Of a stretch of 39,906 nt of DNA, positions 1,587 to 33,501 are shown piece by piece. The DNA is from a virus. The number at the start of each line of letters is the position of its first letter. The stretch's first letter is position 1. The notes beneath the pieces are model-generated. The model saw only the letters and a list, made by a program, of their open reading frames with translations, did not search any database and was not told where the DNA came from. The translations under genes were made by a program, and so were the position numbers. The stretch lies in the UHGV virus genome UHGV-1362718. One strand, written 5' to 3'.

Positions 1587-2429
1587 ATGGCAGTTAAAAA
1601 AAATGTAAGTGTCATTTCTGTGGAGAAACCAACCTGGTTCCCACTAACAGACGAAACGGGTGCTTTTCCAGTTTACGGAGCGCCAATTACAATCGGTACT
1701 GCTGTAAGTATCAAACCAGATGTTACAACAGAAACAACGCCTGACTATGGCGATAGTGTAGTTCAAGATCAGTACGTTGCATTTGGTGGTGCAGAAGTTA
1801 CTTTGGAAACAAATGGATACCAGAATGAAGTTTTAGCTGAAATTACGGGTGGTGAAAAATTGAAAGGCGGTGTTTTACGATCCGCAGATGATATTGCACC
1901 AGATGGAGCATTCGCTTATCGCCGTCGTAAATCAAATGGTAAATATCGCTACACAATTTTTTATAAAGGCAAATTTGCATTGACTTCTGATGAATCATCA
2001 ACTCTAGAAGGTAGTTCAGTATCTTACACTCATCCAGAGTGGACAGGTTCATTTGTTGATGTTCCTGGTGTCGGATACATGTATTCAGTCGATGAAGACG
2101 ATGAAGGTGTTGACTTAGATATGATCAAAAATTGGTTTACTACGGTTACTAATCCACGTGAAGAGTCTACAAATCCTGTCAGTGGTGTAACTTTAGATAA
2201 AACGGAATTAGTTCTAACGGTTGGTGAAACTGCAACTCTAACGCCAACAATTGCACCTGAAAACGCAACAAACAAAAACTATTCATTCAAATCAAATGAT
2301 ACTTCAATTGCAACAGTAACACCTGTGCAAGGAAAAGTTACAGCAGTAACAGCAGGAACCACAACTGTTGTTGTCACTACTGAAGATGGCAACCATAAAG
2401 CTGAATGCAGCGTAACAGTTAATGCATAA
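1587..2429 (+). CDS. major tail protein with C-terminal Big_2 (Ig-like) domain
   Basis: 280 aa, phi13-type major tail N-terminus. The C-terminal 80 aa (VTLDKTELVLTVGETATLTPTIAPENAT...VTTEDGNHKAECSVTV) is a classic Big_2 fold signature. Confidence 0.7.
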   Translation: MAVKKNVSVISVEKPTWFPLTDETGAFPVYGAPITIGTAVSIKPDVTTETTPDYGDSVVQDQYVAFGGAEVTLETNGYQNEVLAEITGGEKLKGGVLRSADDIAPDGAFAYRRRKSNGKYRYTIFYKGKFALTSDESSTLEGSSVSYTHPEWTGSFVDVPGVGYMYSVDEDDEGVDLDMIKNWFTTVTNPREESTNPVSGVTLDKTELVLTVGETATLTPTIAPENATNKNYSFKSNDTSIATVTPVQGKVTAVTAGTTTVVVTTEDGNHKAECSVTVNA

Positions 2430-14438: not shown

Positions 14439-14512
14439 GGACCATTAGCTCAGTTGGTTAGAGCAAACGGCTCATAACCGTTCGGTCACAGGTTCGAGTC
14501 CTGTATGATCCA
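14439..14512 (+). tRNA. tRNA-Met (anticodon CAT; could be the lysidine-modified Ile2 type)
   Basis: Cloverleaf: acceptor GGACCAT/ATGATCC with one C4:A69 mismatch, D arm GCTC/GAGC, anticodon stem AACGG/CCGTT with loop CTCATAA, T arm ACAGG-TTCGAGT-CCTGT, discriminator A. No encoded CCA. Confidence 0.8.
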
Positions 14513-14842: not shown

Positions 14843-16024
14843 TTAAAAATTTACATAGCTACTGAAAGCATCTGTTGCTTCTTTAGTAACTTCATCAGAA
14901 ACATGAGTGTAAGTATCCATAGTTATTTGTAAAGAAGAATGTCCTAAACGTTCTTGGATTATTTTAGACCTAACATTATCTGATTCGAATAATAATGTTG
15001 CGTGTGTATGCCGAAAACCATGACAACCAATAGAATGTAAGTTAGCTTTTTCTGCCAATCTTTTGGAACGTTGGTAAATGTCTTGACTTCGGAACATGGT
15101 ACCATCAATTTTTGTAAAAATAAGTTGTGTTTTAAACCCACCTTTTTTCATTAAAGCCTCACGCTGTCTAAGTTTCCATTTTTTTAAGATATAAGCAGTC
15201 TTGTTATCAAAAGAAATTTTACGAATAGAATTGGGAGTTTTAGGATCGTTTATAGTCAATCCATTTGTACTGATAGCAGTAGTTTTATTTATATTAACTA
15301 CCTGCTCTTTAATATCAATATCATTCCAATTCAATGCTAAAGCTTCACCAACACGTATACCAGTAAAAGAAAGTAAGCGAAAAATAGCACAGTCTAAGTC
15401 AGCATAGTATTTTAGAACTAAACTTTCTTCTTTGGCTTGATTGGCAATGCTATCAGCTGTATTTAAGAAATGTTCCAGTTCGTCTTTTGTATAGAACTTT
15501 CTTTTTGTATTCTTTTCTACTTTCTTTAGCGAACTAGGCTTAGTTATTTTCTTAAATGGGTTTGAGTCTATTATTTCTAAACCAACAGCATAGTCACAAA
15601 CACGAGAAGCATAACTCAAAAGTACTTTTCCCATTTCATTCTTTTTATACCATTCATTAACAGATTTTTGCACGATCTTTACTGTTAAACGCTCAAGTCT
15701 CATTTTCCCGAATGTGGGTAAAATGTGTTTTTTCATACGTCGTTCAGTAGCTATGAATGTGGATTCCCTAACTGTTTTTTTGTATTCGTCCAACCACATA
15801 TAATAAACTTCTTCAAAAGTGGTTAAATGAGTATGCTCGTTAGCTAGATTTCCATTATCAAAATCTAATTTTTTTTGATTAAGCTTGAGCTGTGCTTCTT
15901 TTTTTGTATTACAGTTTCTGATAGTGACATTAATTTGTTTACCAGTTAAATAATCTACGCCTAAATAGGCAGTTACTTTCCAGTATTTTTGTCCTTTTTT
16001 TGTGTATTGTTTAAAAGTTGCCAT
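14843..16024 (-). CDS. int: tyrosine site-specific integrase
   Basis: 393 aa. C-terminal catalytic signature R...HGFRHTHATLL...LGHSSLQITMDTYTHV (R-H-R-Y). Adjacent to the tRNA. Confidence 0.9.
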   Translation of the reverse strand: MATFKQYTKKGQKYWKVTAYLGVDYLTGKQINVTIRNCNTKKEAQLKLNQKKLDFDNGNLANEHTHLTTFEEVYYMWLDEYKKTVRESTFIATERRMKKHILPTFGKMRLERLTVKIVQKSVNEWYKKNEMGKVLLSYASRVCDYAVGLEIIDSNPFKKITKPSSLKKVEKNTKRKFYTKDELEHFLNTADSIANQAKEESLVLKYYADLDCAIFRLLSFTGIRVGEALALNWNDIDIKEQVVNINKTTAISTNGLTINDPKTPNSIRKISFDNKTAYILKKWKLRQREALMKKGGFKTQLIFTKIDGTMFRSQDIYQRSKRLAEKANLHSIGCHGFRHTHATLLFESDNVRSKIIQERLGHSSLQITMDTYTHVSDEVTKEATDAFSSYVNF

Positions 16025-29170: not shown

Positions 29171-29587
29171 TTGATTCAATTGTTAAAAGAAGTTGATTTC
29201 AGTCAGACTAGAGCCAATGCGAGAGCCGTGTTGAAAAATTTTAGACGTTTGGACCGAATAGCTGGTCGTTCCTTAGTAGATGTTCGGTCGCCAATCATTA
29301 CAGACATGCCCAAAGGTATAAAGCATGGTAACAAAGCAGAAGATGCGTTGATCCAGATGATTGATGTCGAAGTAGAGCGTGATGCAATTCTAACGGCTTT
29401 GATGTCATTAAGCATAATAAGTCGTCAAATTCTTCACTACAGTTTTTGCGTGCAGGACCATTACTCTAATTACAAAATCGCCAGAGAAATTGGATATTCT
29501 GAAAGAAGTATTCAAAGAATGAAATCAGAAGCTTTGATTGAATTTGCTGAAGCTTATCGAAATGGCAAAATAATTGCATATAAATAA
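29171..29587 (+). CDS. ArpU-family late-gene transcriptional activator
   Basis: 138 aa, TTG start after AAAGGAGCG. Last early gene before the packaging module. C-terminal sigma region-4-like HTH (IAREIGYSERSIQRMKSEAL). Confidence 0.7.
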   Translation: MIQLLKEVDFSQTRANARAVLKNFRRLDRIAGRSLVDVRSPIITDMPKGIKHGNKAEDALIQMIDVEVERDAILTALMSLSIISRQILHYSFCVQDHYSNYKIAREIGYSERSIQRMKSEALIEFAEAYRNGKIIAYK

Positions 29588-29591
29588 TTTT

Positions 29592-29619
29592 TGGCGGTTT
29601 TTTGGCGGAAAGTTGGCGG
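29592..29619 (+). repeat. three phased TGGCGG direct repeats (29592, 29604, 29614) just after the arpU stop
   Basis: TTTTGGCGGTTTTTTGGCGGAAAGTTGGCGGTTTTT with about 11-bp periodicity. GC-rich hexamers in an AT-rich context. Confidence 0.5.
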
Positions 29620-29652
29620 TTTTTATACGAATTTGAGTGCTAATATAGTAAT

Positions 29653-29804
29653 ATCGAAAGTCAAAGAAATGGACACATTACACAACGCTTTCTGGTTTAG
29701 TCACCGTTTGATTTGACTTTCGATGGTCACTTGCAGACTTACGTTCTCAATAAAATGAAGTGAGGTGAATAACCTCCTCTTTTTTCTACAGGTTTGCAAG
29801 TGAC
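29653..29804. repeat. nested inverted repeats: 13-bp ATCGAAAGTCAAA / TTTGACTTTCGAT (29653..29665 and 29712..29724) and 10-bp GTCACTTGCA / TGCAAGTGAC (29726..29735 and 29795..29804)
   Basis: Perfect inverted repeats read directly. The second pair encloses a short terminator hairpin. Confidence 0.5.
29762..29785 (+). terminator. short intrinsic terminator GAGGT-GAATA-ACCTC followed by CTCTTTTTT
   Basis: 5-bp stem plus T-run. Confidence 0.4.
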
Positions 29805-30190
29805 ACAAATAGTTGCTAGGGATGCAGTAGTAACTACCTGATTCATACTAGTCGAGGTTAGGTATATTTCTCTATCCCAGCATATGACGATAAGAACATT
29901 AACCAGATCTCTGCGGCAGCTGCTTACGCACGAGAGCAATTCCTAGACTCATAGAGTAGCAGCTAGGTACGTTTAGGATAAACTTAATCAATTGTTTTTG
30001 CTGGTGTTTGATTGATTGGTCACTGTGGTGGAATATAGACCATACAAGGTGCAAATCCTTGCCAGTGACATAATCATTTTAGCCGTGAAAGTCTGCGAAA
30101 GCTACGTCCTGATGGGAAAACATTCTGACGAGAGTGTGTAAAGGTTAATTTGATTTATTAGCAATTGCTAGAAGGTAGCTCCTTCTGGTT

Positions 30191-30264
30191 TGGCGTGTAG
30201 CATTGTGGTAATGCAACTTACTTCGTGTGAGATAAGATGCGGGTTCGAATCCTGTCACGCCAAT
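30191..30264 (+). tRNA. tRNA-like element (possible degenerate tRNA, anticodon-loop reading TCG, atypical pyrimidine at position 37)
   Basis: Acceptor TGGCGTG/CACGCCA (7 bp), U8, D arm GCAT-TGTGGTA-ATGC, anticodon stem 4/5 bp with loop CTTCGTG, 6-nt variable loop, canonical T arm GCGGG-TTCGAAT-CCTGT, discriminator A. Confidence 0.35.
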
Positions 30265-30358
30265 AGGTAGCATAGCTACTTAAATAAAAAAATCGTCAAT
30301 AAGTCAAATATAACTACCTTTACGATCAGATGACGGTTAAGATTTTCCCTCCTATCTA

Positions 30359-30389
30359 AGGCTGCACTTTCACCGTGCAGTCTTTTTTT
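30359..30389 (+). terminator. intrinsic terminator GGCTGCAC-tttcacc-GTGCAGTC followed by T7
   Basis: Lies downstream of the tRNA-like element. Confidence 0.55.
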
Positions 30390-30393
30390 ATAC

Positions 30394-30523
30394 GTAAAAA
30401 AACCACTAGATTATGGAATCTAGTGGATAGGTAGCAGACTATATTACAAAAAGATGGGCTTTCTAGGTGTAAATAACTGTTTCAGCATTTAAGGAGTTGC
30501 TACCCAAAAGCATTATAGCAAAT
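30394..30523 (-). ncRNA. repeat unit A of a four-member sRNA-like family (minus strand)
   Basis: Reverse complement reads TGcTATAAT (extended -10 at 30512..30520), GGGTAGCAACTCCTT at the 5' end, ...CTGCTACCTATCC, hairpin CCACTAGAT/ATCTAGTGG (30403..30426), then T7. Confidence 0.35.
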
Positions 30524-30608
30524 TAATAGTGATAGACATTATCCAATTTATGTAAGAAATGACATATTTAGTACATAAAATTAATTAAGAATGTCTCTTT
30601 TAGTATGT

Positions 30609-30733
30609 AAAAAACCGCTAATATCGGAAAATTAGCGGATAGGCAGTTATAGTAAGACTTGTTGATAGAATTTTAAATCGCAAAATCTAAATTCATCAAG
30701 AAGGAATTCCTGCCTGTAAAAATTCTAACAAAT
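30609..30733 (-). ncRNA. repeat unit B (most diverged copy)
   Basis: Reverse complement reads TGtTAGAAT -10-like box (30722..30730), CAGGCAGGAATTCCTT 5' end, hairpin CCGCTAAT/ATTAGCGG (30615..30638), then T6. Confidence 0.3.
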
Positions 30734-30830
30734 ATTAAAAAAATTGTAAAACATTTATGTGTTTGTTTTTTTTACATTAATTGCAATCGAGCTTCAGATG
30801 ATGAGTTAGTAACTATGTTTACTGAACAAC

Positions 30831-30949
30831 AAAAAAACCACCAGTGAAATTAATCATGGGTGGTTAGGTAGCTAGTACGATATGAGGAATTTCATGTGCA
30901 AGAAATTTTCTAAGGTATGTCGCTACCCGTAAATAAATTATAGCAAATC
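30831..30949 (-). ncRNA. repeat unit C
   Basis: Reverse complement reads TGcTATAAT (30938..30946), GGGTAGCGACATACCTT, ...AGCTACCTAACC, hairpin ACCACC../..GGTGGT (30837..30868), then T7. Confidence 0.35.
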
Positions 30950-30977
30950 ATTCATTAATTGTCTTGTCTGATGCATA

Positions 30978-31106
30978 TAAAAACCGCTAGTGGTGACATA
31001 CTAGCGGTTAGGTAGCTAATTGTGTGTCTTTTCATGGAATCATGAATTACATAAGGTGTTGATTTAAAAATAAAAGGAGTTGCTACCTAATAAAATTATA
31101 ACAAAT
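30978..31106 (-). ncRNA. repeat unit D
   Basis: Reverse complement reads TGtTATAAT (31095..31103), GGTAGCAACTCCTTTT, ...AGCTACCTAACC, hairpin ACCGCTAGT/ACTAGCGGT (30983..31008), then T5. Confidence 0.35.
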
Positions 31107-31168
31107 AAGAATGATGAATAAAAGAGATTGCCTTGATGGCTGCTTTTTTTGTTTGGAGGGAATGAAGG

Positions 31169-31393
31169 ATGGATAATTATTGGTACATATCCCTGAACCA
31201 CCATTATCCGAAACCCATGAAAAACCAACATAAACGGGTAGTAATGTCGGTGCAGATTAAGAAAGAATATTCCATCATTGAGATGACACGAGAAGCTACA
31301 CCACAAGAAATTGACTATTGCAAGTTGGTATATTGCGGTCATGGGTGTTGGAGTGACAAACATGTACAAGAGAATGTAGAGAAGTATATTTGA
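31169..31393 (+). CDS. hypothetical small protein (74 aa)
   Basis: GGAGGGAATGAAGG RBS. The only plausible ORF in the 1.85 kb gap. Confidence 0.3.
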   Translation: MDNYWYISLNHHYPKPMKNQHKRVVMSVQIKKEYSIIEMTREATPQEIDYCKLVYCGHGCWSDKHVQENVEKYI

Positions 31394-31445
31394 TTTACGA
31401 AAACAAACTCAACTATTGAAGCGAAAAGTGAGGTGGTGTTAATGG

Positions 31446-32240
31446 ATGGCTAGAAAAAGAGACCCTCGTCGTGATGAAGCTAAAAAAATATGGCTAGATT
31501 CAGGTGGGAAAAAGGTTCTTAAAGAATTAGCTAGTGAACTAAATGTTTCTGATTCTCAAATCAGGAAATGGAAATCTGTTGATAAATGGGCGGAAGAATT
31601 AAAAGGTAACGTTACTAAATCGAATAGTAACGTTACCAATAAAAGTGGAGCGCCGCCAGGTAATAAAAATGCTAAGGGGAACAAAGGAGGTTCTCCTCCT
31701 AAAGGTAATAAGAACGCTATTAAAACTGGCGAATACGAAACAATATTTGCCGATATGTTATCTGACGAAGAAAAGGACATCTATTCTAATCTGAATGATG
31801 ATCCTTTTTTTATTTTGAATGATGAAATTCGCCTGCTTAAAATTCGCCAGTTTAGAATGATGAAACGTATTAAAGAGGCTGAGAAAGGCTTAAACGATGA
31901 AGAAGTTGAACGACTGCAACAGTTGCGAAAAGTCAAAGAACCATCTTCGATTGGCGGAAAAGTTGTCACTGTCAAGAGAGAAGTTTTAAAAGATGTGCAA
32001 ATAACTCGTAAGACATTTAGAAAACTAGATGACATTCTGGCTATTGAAGATGCGTTGACAAGAATTAGCAATCAGTTAACAAAGGCTATTAAGCAACAGA
32101 ATGCCTTGCTAGCAAATGATGCCAAATTACAACTATTGAAGGTTCAAACTGAAAAAGTTAAAGCTAGTTTAGATGCTACAAGTGGAGACATGGATATGCC
32201 AGTTTTCATCGATGATATATCAGGTGATGAATATGAGTAA
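31446..32240 (+). CDS. terS: terminase small subunit
   Basis: 264 aa. N-terminal HTH (KELASELNVSDSQIRKWK), Gly/Lys-rich linker, coiled-coil C-terminus. Stop overlaps the terL start. Confidence 0.7.
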   Translation: MARKRDPRRDEAKKIWLDSGGKKVLKELASELNVSDSQIRKWKSVDKWAEELKGNVTKSNSNVTNKSGAPPGNKNAKGNKGGSPPKGNKNAIKTGEYETIFADMLSDEEKDIYSNLNDDPFFILNDEIRLLKIRQFRMMKRIKEAEKGLNDEEVERLQQLRKVKEPSSIGGKVVTVKREVLKDVQITRKTFRKLDDILAIEDALTRISNQLTKAIKQQNALLANDAKLQLLKVQTEKVKASLDATSGDMDMPVFIDDISGDEYE

Positions 32241-33501
32241 AAAATTATCTGAATTTCTTCCTAAAGCATTTCATACTACTTGGAGGGTAGCATTAAACTC
32301 AAATATATTACATGTTGTTGAAAAAGGTGGCCGTGGGTCAGGTAAATCATCTGGCATAGCACACATAATCGTTCAATTGATTATGAGATATCCTGTAAAT
32401 GCTGTGGCCATTAGATATGTTGATAATACGATTGAGCTATCTATTTTTGAACAAATTAAGTGGGCTATTGAAGAACAAGGTGTGTCTAAGTATTTTAAAG
32501 TAAATAAAAGTCCTATGAAAATCACCTATAAACCCAGGGGGAATTATATTGTTTTTCGTGGTGCACAGAATCCAGAAAGGATTAAGTCATTAAAAGATTC
32601 AAGATTTCCATTTGCTATAGCTTGGATTGAGGAATTAGCCGAGTTTAAAACTGAAGATGATGTAAAAACCATAACTAACTCATTGCTACGTGGTGAATTA
32701 GCAGATGGTCTTTTTTATAAATTTTTTTATTCGTACAATCCTCCTAAGCGACGACAATCATGGGTTAATAAGAAATATGAATCTAGCTTCCAACCTGAGA
32801 ATACTTTTGTTCATCATTCAACATATAAGGATAATCCATTCATAGCTCAAGCATTTATTGAAGAAGTTAATGCCACGAGAGCTAAGAATCCGAAACGTGC
32901 TGAGTGGGAGTATGACGGCAAAGCTATTGGTTCAGGAGTTGTTCCGTTTGATAATTTACGAGTAATAAAAGGTTGTATTACTGATGAGATGGTAGCTAAC
33001 TTTGATAATATCAGAAACGGTCTTGACTTCGGTTATGCTACTGATCCGCTAGCATTTGTTAGATGGCACTACGATAAGAAAAAGAATGGCATCTATGCTG
33101 TTGATGAAATTTATGGAGTGAAAATCAGTAATCGTGAGTTTGCCCAAAAGGCGAAAGCAAAAGGTTATCAGTCTGATCGTATTGCATCGGATTCAGCAGA
33201 ACCTAAATCCATAGCAGAATTGAATAATGAACACGGAATGAGCCGCGTATTTGGGGTTAAAAAAGGCCCCGACTCTGTGCAGTATGGCGAGGAATGGTTG
33301 GATGATTTGGATTTTATTTGTATCGACCCACTAAGAACTCCAAATATAGCCAAAGAGTTTGAAAACATTGATTATCAGACGGATAAAGATGGCAATCCTA
33401 AGCCAAGGCTTGAAGATAAAGATAACCATACAATCGATGCAACAAGATACGCTTTTAGCGAAGACATGGAGAAAAATAACGTAAGTTTCATTAAATTTTA
33501 G
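32233..33501 (+). CDS. terL: terminase large subunit, PBSX family
   Basis: Walker A (VEKGGRGSGKSSGIAHII), ATPase then nuclease domains. ATG 32233 overlaps the terS stop. Confidence 0.9.
   Translation: MSKKLSEFLPKAFHTTWRVALNSNILHVVEKGGRGSGKSSGIAHIIVQLIMRYPVNAVAIRYVDNTIELSIFEQIKWAIEEQGVSKYFKVNKSPMKITYKPRGNYIVFRGAQNPERIKSLKDSRFPFAIAWIEELAEFKTEDDVKTITNSLLRGELADGLFYKFFYSYNPPKRRQSWVNKKYESSFQPENTFVHHSTYKDNPFIAQAFIEEVNATRAKNPKRAEWEYDGKAIGSGVVPFDNLRVIKGCITDEMVANFDNIRNGLDFGYATDPLAFVRWHYDKKKNGIYAVDEIYGVKISNREFAQKAKAKGYQSDRIASDSAEPKSIAELNNEHGMSRVFGVKKGPDSVQYGEEWLDDLDFICIDPLRTPNIAKEFENIDYQTDKDGNPKPRLEDKDNHTIDATRYAFSEDMEKNNVSFIKF

Follow-up and report, generated by a model that had tools for sequence, protein, structure and literature searches.

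A tRNA-Arg-like element upstream of terS in an Enterococcus faecalis phage may be a non-decoding processing module in a swappable tRNA slot

We found that the tRNA-like element at 30191-30263 of the window (the whole 39,906-nt stretch of UHGV-1362718, whose numbering is used throughout) has a tRNA-class fold, is homologous to the tRNAs that occupy the same slot in related phages, and is followed on the plus strand by a tail hairpin and a terminator, with an obligatory linkage between tRNA and trailer. As judged from sequence comparison, there is about an even chance that the element is a non-decoding tRNA relic retained as an RNase P/RNase Z processing module in a swappable phage tRNA slot. 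In its lineage (Family A), the decoding half (i.e. the anticodon arm and core tertiary positions) is decayed on these alignments, while the shape of the acceptor, T and D arms is kept. The features of the locus are given in Table 1.

Table 1. RNA features and promoter-like sequences of the arpU-terS leader
Feature	Position	Strand	Basis
Three TTGGCGG boxes with 11-nt spacing, plus promoter-like TTTATA-16-TATAGT	29592..29649	+	Sequence, promoter scan
Second tRNA remnant, no anticodon arm	30022..30070	+	Sequence; relative L017
5' leader hairpin AGAAGG-TAGCT-CCTTCT	30170..30186	+	Conserved upstream of Family A elements
tRNA-like element, Family A1 allele, nominal anticodon TCG	30191..30263	+	ARAGORN, Rfam RF00005, segment parse
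Tail hairpin UAGGUAGC-AUA-GCUACUUA, 8 bp	30264..30282	+	RNAalifold consensus of 14 trailers
Trailer body	30283..30357	+	14-trailer alignment
Intrinsic terminator T2 of the tRNA-trailer unit, 10-bp stem and T run	30358..30389	+	Terminator scan
sRNA unit 1: extended -10 TGCTATAAT (30512-30520), 5' GGGUAGC, 3' GCUACCUAU, terminator and U run	30394..30520	-	
sRNA unit 2: extended -10 TGTTAGAAT (30722-30730), closing stem GGCAG/CUGCC, terminator	30607..30730	-	
sRNA unit 3: extended -10 TGCTATAAT (30937-30945), closing stem GGUAGC/GCUACC, terminator	30829..30945	-	
sRNA unit 4: extended -10 TGTTATAAT (31095-31103), AGGUAGC/GCUACCU, unpaired ACUCCUU, terminator	30975..31103	-	

The element parses into a 7-bp acceptor stem (TGGCGTG/CACGCCA) followed by T8 and A9, a D arm (GCAT-TGTGGTA-ATGC) that holds G18 and G19 and is followed by A26, an anticodon arm (ACTTA-CTTCGTG-TGAGA), a 6-nt variable loop (TAAGAT), a T arm (GCGGG-TTCGAAT-CCTGT) and a discriminator A at 30263, with no CCA encoded. 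The anticodon stem forms four of its five pairs (A27.A43 is mismatched and U30.G40 is a wobble), and its 7-nt loop has U33, the anticodon TCG, U37 and G38. This parse confirms the cloverleaf of the first-pass annotation, including its acceptor stem, D and T arms, discriminator A, A27.A43 mismatch and CUUCGUG loop with U37. ARAGORN, which that annotation had proposed running on the region 30150..30300, called a tRNA-Arg(tcg) at 30190-30264, and RF00005 matched 30191-30263 with 46.0 bits versus a gathering score of 29 (E=8e-7). Both programs accept the element, so the rejection by ARAGORN that the first-pass annotation had named as counting against a tRNA did not occur. The minimum-free-energy fold of the window allele is a rod (-24.0 kcal/mol), and the canonical tRNAs of the slot and the tRNA-Met of the window also gave no cloverleaf.

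Relative to a canonical decoder, the element has the 7-bp acceptor stem, a T loop of the GTTCRANYC type, G18 G19, U8 and U33, but departs from it by U14 instead of A14, by A27.A43, by U37 (plus G38), and by a 6-nt rather than a 4-5-nt variable loop. A14 pairs with U8 in essentially all tRNAs. For arginine identity, C35, G36 and A73 are present, and a U lies between G19 and A21 where A20 is expected. E. coli ArgRS recognizes A20 in the D loop, C35, G/U36 and A/G73, and A20 is the major ArgRS determinant in bacteria.

We compared these features with 500 unique ARAGORN-called tRNAs from the other viral loci retrieved and found a purine at position 37 in 97.2%, U37 in 2.8% and G38 in 1.4%; anticodon stems have no mismatch in 85%, one in 14% and two in 0.8%. 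Some of the U37-bearing phage tRNAs are otherwise canonical. Hence, at these background frequencies, no single odd feature of the window allele, which is the best-paired of the A1 alleles, disqualifies decoding. Instead, loss of decoding is indicated by several features taken together: U14, U20, the 6-nt variable loop, an anticodon that varies from allele to allele and a sister lineage that has no anticodon stem.

The sequence 3' of the element (GTAGC, a loop, GCTRC and TTAAATAAA) is present in >119 IMG/VR contigs, and directly 5' of this conserved tail is a slot holding a tRNA or tRNA-like element of varying identity, with at least eight anticodons. For 124 matches, ARAGORN called Trp-CCA (40), Glu-TTC (15), Arg-TCG (12), Asn-GTT (11), Arg-TCT (6), Arg-ACG (5), Lys-TTT (4) and a few others; about 20 slot sequences are tRNA-like yet rejected by ARAGORN. 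These slot tRNAs fall on two scaffolds. Family B, whose members include Trp, Asn and Arg-UCU, is canonical: its acceptor is TGGAATA or TGGGATA, its discriminator is G, its anticodon stems are clean and its loops are canonical. Acceptor changes in Family B are compensatory (GGGAUA/UGUUCC to GGGGCA/UGCCCC), the Arg(TCT) allele has A14 and A20, and RF00005 scores are 62.6-70.5 bits. The scores of Family A, the scaffold of the window, are 56.6-58.8 bits for A2, 42.7-46.0 bits for A1 (the window type) and 29.8 bits for A3, which aligns to RF00005 in the acceptor and T arm only.

Family A comprises 20 unique sequences with the acceptor TGGCGTG/CACGYCA, the discriminator A and the T arm GCRGG-TTCGAWT-CCTGY. 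The acceptor and T stems are fully paired in 20/20 and every change in them preserves the pair (G:C to G.U, G.U to A:U); the D stem is also paired except in L117 and L119, with one broken pair each. In contrast, every anticodon stem has 1-3 mismatches and stem changes break pairs, with 27:43 mismatched in all sequences except the aberrant single-contig variants L062 and L119. The sequence of the anticodon arm differs among subtypes: between-subtype identity is 31-32/34 for the top half versus 4-9/17 for the anticodon arm (Fisher p=1e-3 to 4e-7). The A3 lineage (at least 18 contigs) has no anticodon stem and an intact top half. Close A1 alleles have the anticodon TCG, ACG or TTG and C or T at position 32, and about half of them have G30.G40 as a second stem mismatch without compensation; the anticodon is not conserved among near-identical A1 alleles, contrary to purifying selection on it. 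A scan of genome contigs for the Family A 3' signature gave one match, in a metagenome-assembled genome. We also compared the element with the tRNA-Arg of Schiekvirus phage 113 and found the two to be unrelated.

The element could instead be a working, if atypical, phage tRNA-Arg(UCG) that decodes CGA/CGG late and whose U37/G38 loop could resist a host anticodon nuclease, an account that we consider tenable but unlikely. The ARAGORN call and the score above the Rfam cut-off agree with it, as do U33, the 7-nt loop, C35, G36, A73 and the presence of U37 in otherwise canonical phage tRNAs. The same allele is unchanged in 7 other viral contigs, and CGA makes up 17.9% of the arginine codons of the late genes, a moderate use that was counted in the phage alone. 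However, U14 and U20 stand in place of A14 and of the ArgRS determinant A20, the A27.A43 mismatch and the 6-nt variable loop weigh against decoding, near-identical alleles switch to ACG or TTG and add the uncompensated G30.G40, the sister lineage A3 keeps the same top half with no anticodon stem, and the score is 46 bits versus 63-70 for the canonical tRNAs of the slot.

To our knowledge, no cognate anticodon nuclease is known in the host. Enterococcus phage VEsP-1 (MZ333456) has an element of identical type under the label tRNA-Arg-TCG, and the window element shares with phage tRNA genes of this kind the fold class, the locus, the detecting programs and the late-gene orientation; its CCA is unencoded, as in many Firmicutes tRNAs. 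It differs from them by having neither A14 nor A20 and by U37, G38 and the mismatched stem, and, unlike a tRNA of fixed identity, the Family A scaffold carries interchangeable and often broken anticodon arms. Hence, of the functional tRNA-Arg(TCG) offered by the first-pass annotation, the tRNA class and the VEsP-1 label stand, whereas the core positions, the loop, the stem and the allele switches count against it.

In other phages, the slot holds canonical tRNAs whose identity turns over, a pattern that fits an arms race and favors a decoding tRNA. Since Trp, which has a single codon, is among the slot identities, codon supplementation cannot explain the turnover; the replacement of Trp, Asn, Arg, Lys and Glu fits a conflict with tRNA-targeting defense better than codon supply. 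According to one hypothesis (van den Berg et al. 2023, PMC10264068), mutations in the anticodon loop shield phage tRNAs against nucleases, among them the tRNA-Arg-targeting colicin D, and phage tRNAs evade defense in the case of T5 tRNA-Lys versus PARIS (PMC11464382) and in retron evasion (PMC11555353). The window element resembles such tRNAs in its unusual anticodon loop; however, nuclease-resistant phage tRNAs are otherwise functional decoders, whereas the window element is also damaged in its stem and core positions.

It is doubtful that the element is a neutral, functionless tRNA pseudogene whose conservation comes from recent ancestry and from recombination at conserved tRNA boxes. These phages are mosaic, with trailer types and tRNA types shuffled among them and breakpoints near the tail, and the leader contains other tRNA debris. 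A hand count within A1 alone gives no significant surplus of variable sites in the anticodon arm (4/17 sites variable versus 8/56 elsewhere), which favors a pseudogene and counts against a processing module. Against neutrality, Family A keeps its pairs through changes in the acceptor and T stems and loses them through changes in the anticodon stem, A3 retains its top half although it is the most decayed lineage, and all of the independently retrieved trailers have a tRNA in front (61/61). Hence, the pseudogene suggested in the first-pass annotation captures the decay of the anticodon arm but not the pair-preserving conservation of the acceptor, D and T arms.

The partner of the element on the plus strand is the trailer. 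The tail hairpin begins at the first nucleotide past the discriminator and has TAGGTAGC as its 5' strand; TAGGTAGC-ATA-GCTAC is located at 30264-30279, so the tail that had been described directly 3' of the element, TAGGTAGC with GTAGC/GCTAC pairing, is correct and is part of the 8-bp hairpin. All 8 pairs are kept across 14 trailers, and the A/G3:U and U5:A/G wobbles can form only if the RNA is the plus strand. Unbiased retrieval gave the stem variants GUAGC/GCUAC, GUAGC/GCUGC, GUGGC/GCUGC, GUGGC/GCUAC and GUGG/CCAC; a looser scan with GGTTCGANTCC...TTAAATAAA, which returned mostly unrelated loci, yielded the handful of unbiased tail variants. Hence, the tail hairpin acts as plus-strand RNA, because its variants stay paired only on the plus strand. 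In phiFL3A, a 38-nt palindrome is inserted in the tail loop.

The trailer is about 125 nt (30264-30389) and ends at T2, which adjoins the unit 1 minus-strand terminator back to back and is conserved with compensatory changes. Its body has a stem, ATCGTCA (30292-30298) with TGACGGT (30331-30337), followed by UUUUCCCUCCUAUC (30343-30356), which is unpaired and invariant, holds a CCCUCC stretch and resembles an anti-Shine-Dalgarno sequence. A trailer-anchored scan, independent of the tRNA, found that the 61 trailers are all preceded by slot tRNAs, with six different anticodons. Hence, the linkage of trailer and tRNA shape is obligatory and that of trailer and anticodon is not. In phages of the phiFL2A type, about 25 nt separate the trailer terminator from the terS ribosome-binding site downstream, so late transcription must read through the terminator.

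The window is a temperate phage of Enterococcus faecalis and is of the phiFL2/phiFL3/IME197 type; the element sits between arpU (29171-29587), which encodes an ArpU-family late regulator (TIGR01637 match, 130 bits), and terS/terL (31446-33501). No plus-strand ORF of at least 50 aa is present across 29588-31168, an island of about 1.58 kb, and related annotated genomes have no CDS between arpU and the tRNA. The array of TTGGCGG boxes and promoter-like sequence begins directly past the arpU stop codon and is kept in 45/80 related loci, 180-860 nt 5' of the slot tRNA. From its position and sequence, this array is probably an ArpU-dependent late promoter that would drive the tRNA. The leader hairpin stops 4 nt ahead of tRNA position 1.

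The second tRNA remnant, at 30022-30070, has an acceptor-like TCACTG/CAGTGA, a small D-like hairpin and a T-like arm, CAAGG-TGCAAAT-CCTTG. Its counterpart in the relative L017 shares its ends, with TTGCTG/CAGCGA as a compensatory change, and has a tRNA-Leu-like D arm and an insert of about 290 nt, and its 34-nt 3' part also occurs in Schiekvirus phages. An armless remnant whose acceptor helix is kept by compensatory change would fit the processing-module reading. An Rfam scan of 29550-31460 with E up to 10 found the tRNA alone. Matches to Ref84, RsaH and ncr1175 were terminator-driven and far under the cut-offs. Although the strings CUGAUGG and CUGACGAG occur at 30110-30132, we found neither a hammerhead nor any other ribozyme. 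In relatives, the island also holds rli28/RatA type I toxin-antitoxin RNAs. These features show that the 'empty' region of about 1.5 kb is packed with RNA genes.

If the element is a processing module, it would no longer be charged or decode CGA/CGG, and it would persist because RNase P and RNase Z still recognize its shape. Plus-strand transcription would probably start about 540 nt upstream, at the late promoter with the TTGGCGG boxes, and would be followed by an RNase P cut at 30191 and an RNase Z cut after A30263. The latter is proposed because no CCA is encoded; in Firmicutes, CCA-less precursors are matured by RNase Z cutting after the discriminator. The RNase Z cut would free the trailer RNA (30264-30389) with its unpaired CCCUCC and its own terminator, and the first 19 nt of this RNA, the 8-bp hairpin, might cap its 5' end against a 5'-exonuclease. 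A role for the freed trailer RNA may be supposed.

Several observations count against the processing-module reading. The stretch from the proposed promoter to the tRNA contains a weak terminator-like hairpin (29762-29790), and two-sided covariation in the trailer occurs in only 1/28 pairs. Recombination at tRNA boxes that are universally conserved, and not selection, could account for the identity of the top half among subtypes, and the 8-bp hairpin that abuts the discriminator might be a hindrance and not a help to RNase Z.

Other tRNA-like shapes serve as processing signals: MALAT1 mascRNA, the MHV68 miRNAs linked to tRNA-like elements and cut by tRNase Z, and the E. coli 3'ETS-leuZ trailer sRNA. 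Plant mitochondrial t-elements are tRNA-like processing signals too (PMC1920247). As in t-elements and mascRNA, the tRNA shape of the window element need not decode, and it lies directly 5' of an RNA whose end RNase Z would make. Two features expected of such elements are found here: the subtype identities and A3 give a conserved top half with a dispensable anticodon domain, conservation being confined to the part read by RNase P and RNase Z, and a second conserved RNA, the trailer, directly abuts the element in 61/61 cases. Unlike t-elements and mascRNA, the window element lies in a bacteriophage late leader and its cleavage is predicted; its partner is a terminator-ended trailer with an anti-Shine-Dalgarno-like stretch, and sister phages hold apparently real tRNAs at the same place. 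Phage tRNA islands adjoining ROOL/GOLLD RNAs (PMC5737381, PMC12286853) are a similar non-coding setting, and in L017 a ROOL RNA (RF03087, 263 bits) precedes the slot element by about 350 nt; however, the window has no ROOL/GOLLD match at the gathering threshold or with E up to 10.

Beyond T2, we found four minus-strand sRNA units by an architecture search, and 97 complete minus-strand units of the same architecture are present in related loci; a phage-database search with the repeat region 30380-31180 gave short partial matches only. Each unit is laid out as a TGNTAKAAT extended -10, 6-9 nt, (G)GGUAGC, a body of about 60 nt, GCUACCUA and a terminator. The closing stem of unit 2 is a compensatory variant of GGUAGC/GCUACC, and six of the 97 units have GGUAGU/GCUACC, whose U.G pair can form only in minus-strand RNA. 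In the four hairpins downstream of the element, the runs of A seen on the plus strand are runs of U on the minus strand, and the scan called three of these hairpins as minus-strand terminators. Hence, with their own minus-strand promoters and terminators and their strand-specific pairing, the units are separate, convergently transcribed sibling sRNA genes, and because the hairpins are minus-strand terminators, the units are not co-transcribed with the tRNA.

There are 18 copies of GGTAGC or its complement in the window versus 6.2 expected, and eight of them lie within 30174-31087 (914 bp) versus 0.14 expected (Poisson P=3e-12). The excess reported in the first-pass annotation is therefore real, at 8 copies in 914 bp rather than about 9 in 1 kb. 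The copy at 30174 lies in the loop of the leader hairpin, where relatives have GGTCGC. Likewise, TAGGTAGC, said to follow all four downstream hairpins, follows three; the second has ATAGGCAG with a compensating CTGCC. TAGGTAGC serves as RNA on opposite strands, plus at the tail and minus in the units.

The 8-nt word that the tail has in common with three of the four units could be a shared protein-binding site, and the locus could act as DNA, as a module junction for recombination or as an attachment or packaging site. Its position just upstream of terS, the recombination of the modules that flank the tail and the phiFL3A palindrome would suit such a role. We consider it very improbable, as the wobble patterns reflect constraint on RNA, from the plus strand at the tail and from the minus strand in the units (GGUAGU/GCUACC, GGCAG/CUGCC), the units possess complete promoters and terminators, and duplicated tRNA 3' halves typical of integration sites were not seen. 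Hardly credible is the polycistron of the first-pass annotation, in which the tRNA mimic is the 5' processing signal of a plus-strand RNA through the four units, which lie downstream on the same DNA and share TAGGTAGC: the strong plus-strand terminator at 30358-30389 intervenes, each unit has a well-spaced extended -10 and a hairpin with a U run on the minus strand only, and the related loci have complete minus-strand units. Of the processing signal as first suggested, a modified form survives, with the trailer of about 125 nt to 30358-30389 as the partner instead of the four units, which are minus-strand genes beyond the terminator.

A wider scheme, which we regard as speculative and improbable, would join the canonical and decayed elements. 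The slot would be a hot-swappable single-tRNA cassette in which a conserved top-half chassis and a hairpin at the RNase Z site receive recombined anticodon domains. Some lineages would carry real tRNAs (Trp, Asn, Lys, Arg) that counter host tRNA-targeting defense, and the window lineage would be the chassis alone, a non-decoding mimic that matures and hairpin-caps a phage anti-Shine-Dalgarno small RNA. If true, this cassette with its mimic would be the bacterial-virus counterpart of the herpesvirus small RNAs that are linked to tRNA-like elements.

The element type is already known as a tRNA-Arg-TCG annotation in one related GenBank record, and phage tRNAs and tRNA-like processing signals are established kinds. 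In the literature searched, we found no description of the slot or of the sRNA units in Enterococcus. Three features appear undescribed there: a slot for one tRNA whose two scaffolds are fixed and whose anticodon domains change rapidly or are decayed, the obligatory coupling of this slot to a trailer RNA that is headed by a hairpin, and the island of RNA genes around it.

For annotation, these results advise caution, as 'tRNA-Arg-TCG' labels in these phage genomes probably overstate function. Phage tRNAs are now being reinterpreted as counter-defense tools, and this locus is a compact natural experiment: in a single tRNA slot of temperate phages of a clinical pathogen, anticodon identity changes on two fixed scaffolds and the elements grade from canonical tRNAs down to relics that consist of the top half only. 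If processing by RNase P and RNase Z is what keeps the relic, phages would reuse the tRNA shape as RNA punctuation that sets off small regulatory RNAs where the late operon begins.

The arrangement of TTGGCGG boxes and TATAGT that follows arpU is kept in 45 of 80 related loci and is probably an ArpU-dependent late promoter. We found that the leader hairpin is retained in relatives with compensatory changes (GATAAG/CTTATC). Because two terminators precede terS, this hairpin might serve in read-through or antitermination.

The arpU-terS island also holds known RNA families in related phages. ROOL RNA (RF03087, 263 bits) lies upstream of the slot element, the tRNA-like element that occupies the single-tRNA position of the island, in L017, and the type I toxin-antitoxin RNAs rli28 and RatA lie shortly downstream of it in other related phages. 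The four sRNA genes of the window matched no Rfam family. In each of them, the 5' and 3' ends are closed by a 7-9-bp stem, which is GGUAGC/GCUACC except in unit 2, where it is GGCAG/CUGCC, and they carry CU-rich unpaired stretches such as ACUCCUU. Complete units with this architecture number 97 in related viral loci.

Features of the window and of related loci, with coordinates
Feature	Location	Strand	Remarks
Three TTGGCGG boxes and -10-like TATAGT (putative late promoter)	window 29592-29649		exactly 11-nt box spacing; right after arpU stop codon
12-bp leader hairpin	window 29654-29665 / 29712-29723		arms TCGAAAGTCAAA / TTTGACTTTCGA; shortly 3' of putative late promoter
Four divergent sibling sRNA genes	window 30394-31103	minus	extended -10 promoter and intrinsic terminator in each
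Second tRNA-derived remnant	window 30022-30070; L017 7230-7560; L126 1501-1534
Canonical tRNA-Met(CAT)	window 14439-14512		68.6 bits; between lysis genes and integrase
Integrase	window 14843-16024	minus
arpU-terS island RNAs in relatives	L017 6641-7219; L011 10643-10957; L119 4320-4629
38-nt palindrome CATTCCATTCATTAATTAATTAATGAATGAATG	L005 (phiFL3A) 2334-2400		insertion in tail-hairpin loop
Family A2 slot allele	L003 1792-1865

The second tRNA-derived remnant has, in the window, a helix resembling an acceptor stem and an arm resembling a T arm, with loop UGCAAAU, and is without an anticodon arm. In L017, a tRNA-Leu-like D arm and an insert of ~290 nt lie between the same ends. The 34-nt 3' part of the remnant recurs with 97% identity in 150-kb Schiekvirus phages, where the copy adjoins a group I intron endonuclease gene. 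Outside the island, the tRNA-Met(CAT) sits where the attP region of the phage is expected.

Behind the slot tRNA, the GGTAGC/GCTAC stem of the tail hairpin is retained in phiFL3A, which has the palindrome in the loop. Trailer type III (L007, L014, L022, L026 and other loci) includes UUCACCUCCUUUCAGA, which we take to share a 12-nt identity with the anti-Shine-Dalgarno end of 16S rRNA.

In the slot alleles of Family A2, a subtype of the window's tRNA scaffold (L003, L012, L016, L032, L072 and L240), the anticodon loop lies within a T run that differs among alleles in length and composition, and the loop reads TTTTCAA (Glu), TTTTTAA (Lys) or, with 8 nt, TTTTTTAA. G3.U70 and A73, together the classical identity set for AlaRS, are both present in most of these alleles. 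We also found U37 in phage tRNAs from unrelated viral contigs (L176, L183, L205 and L215), where several calls for tRNA-Asp and tRNA-Glu that are canonical in other respects have the loops CUGUCUA and CUUUCUA. Hence, pyrimidine-37 tRNAs recur in phages.
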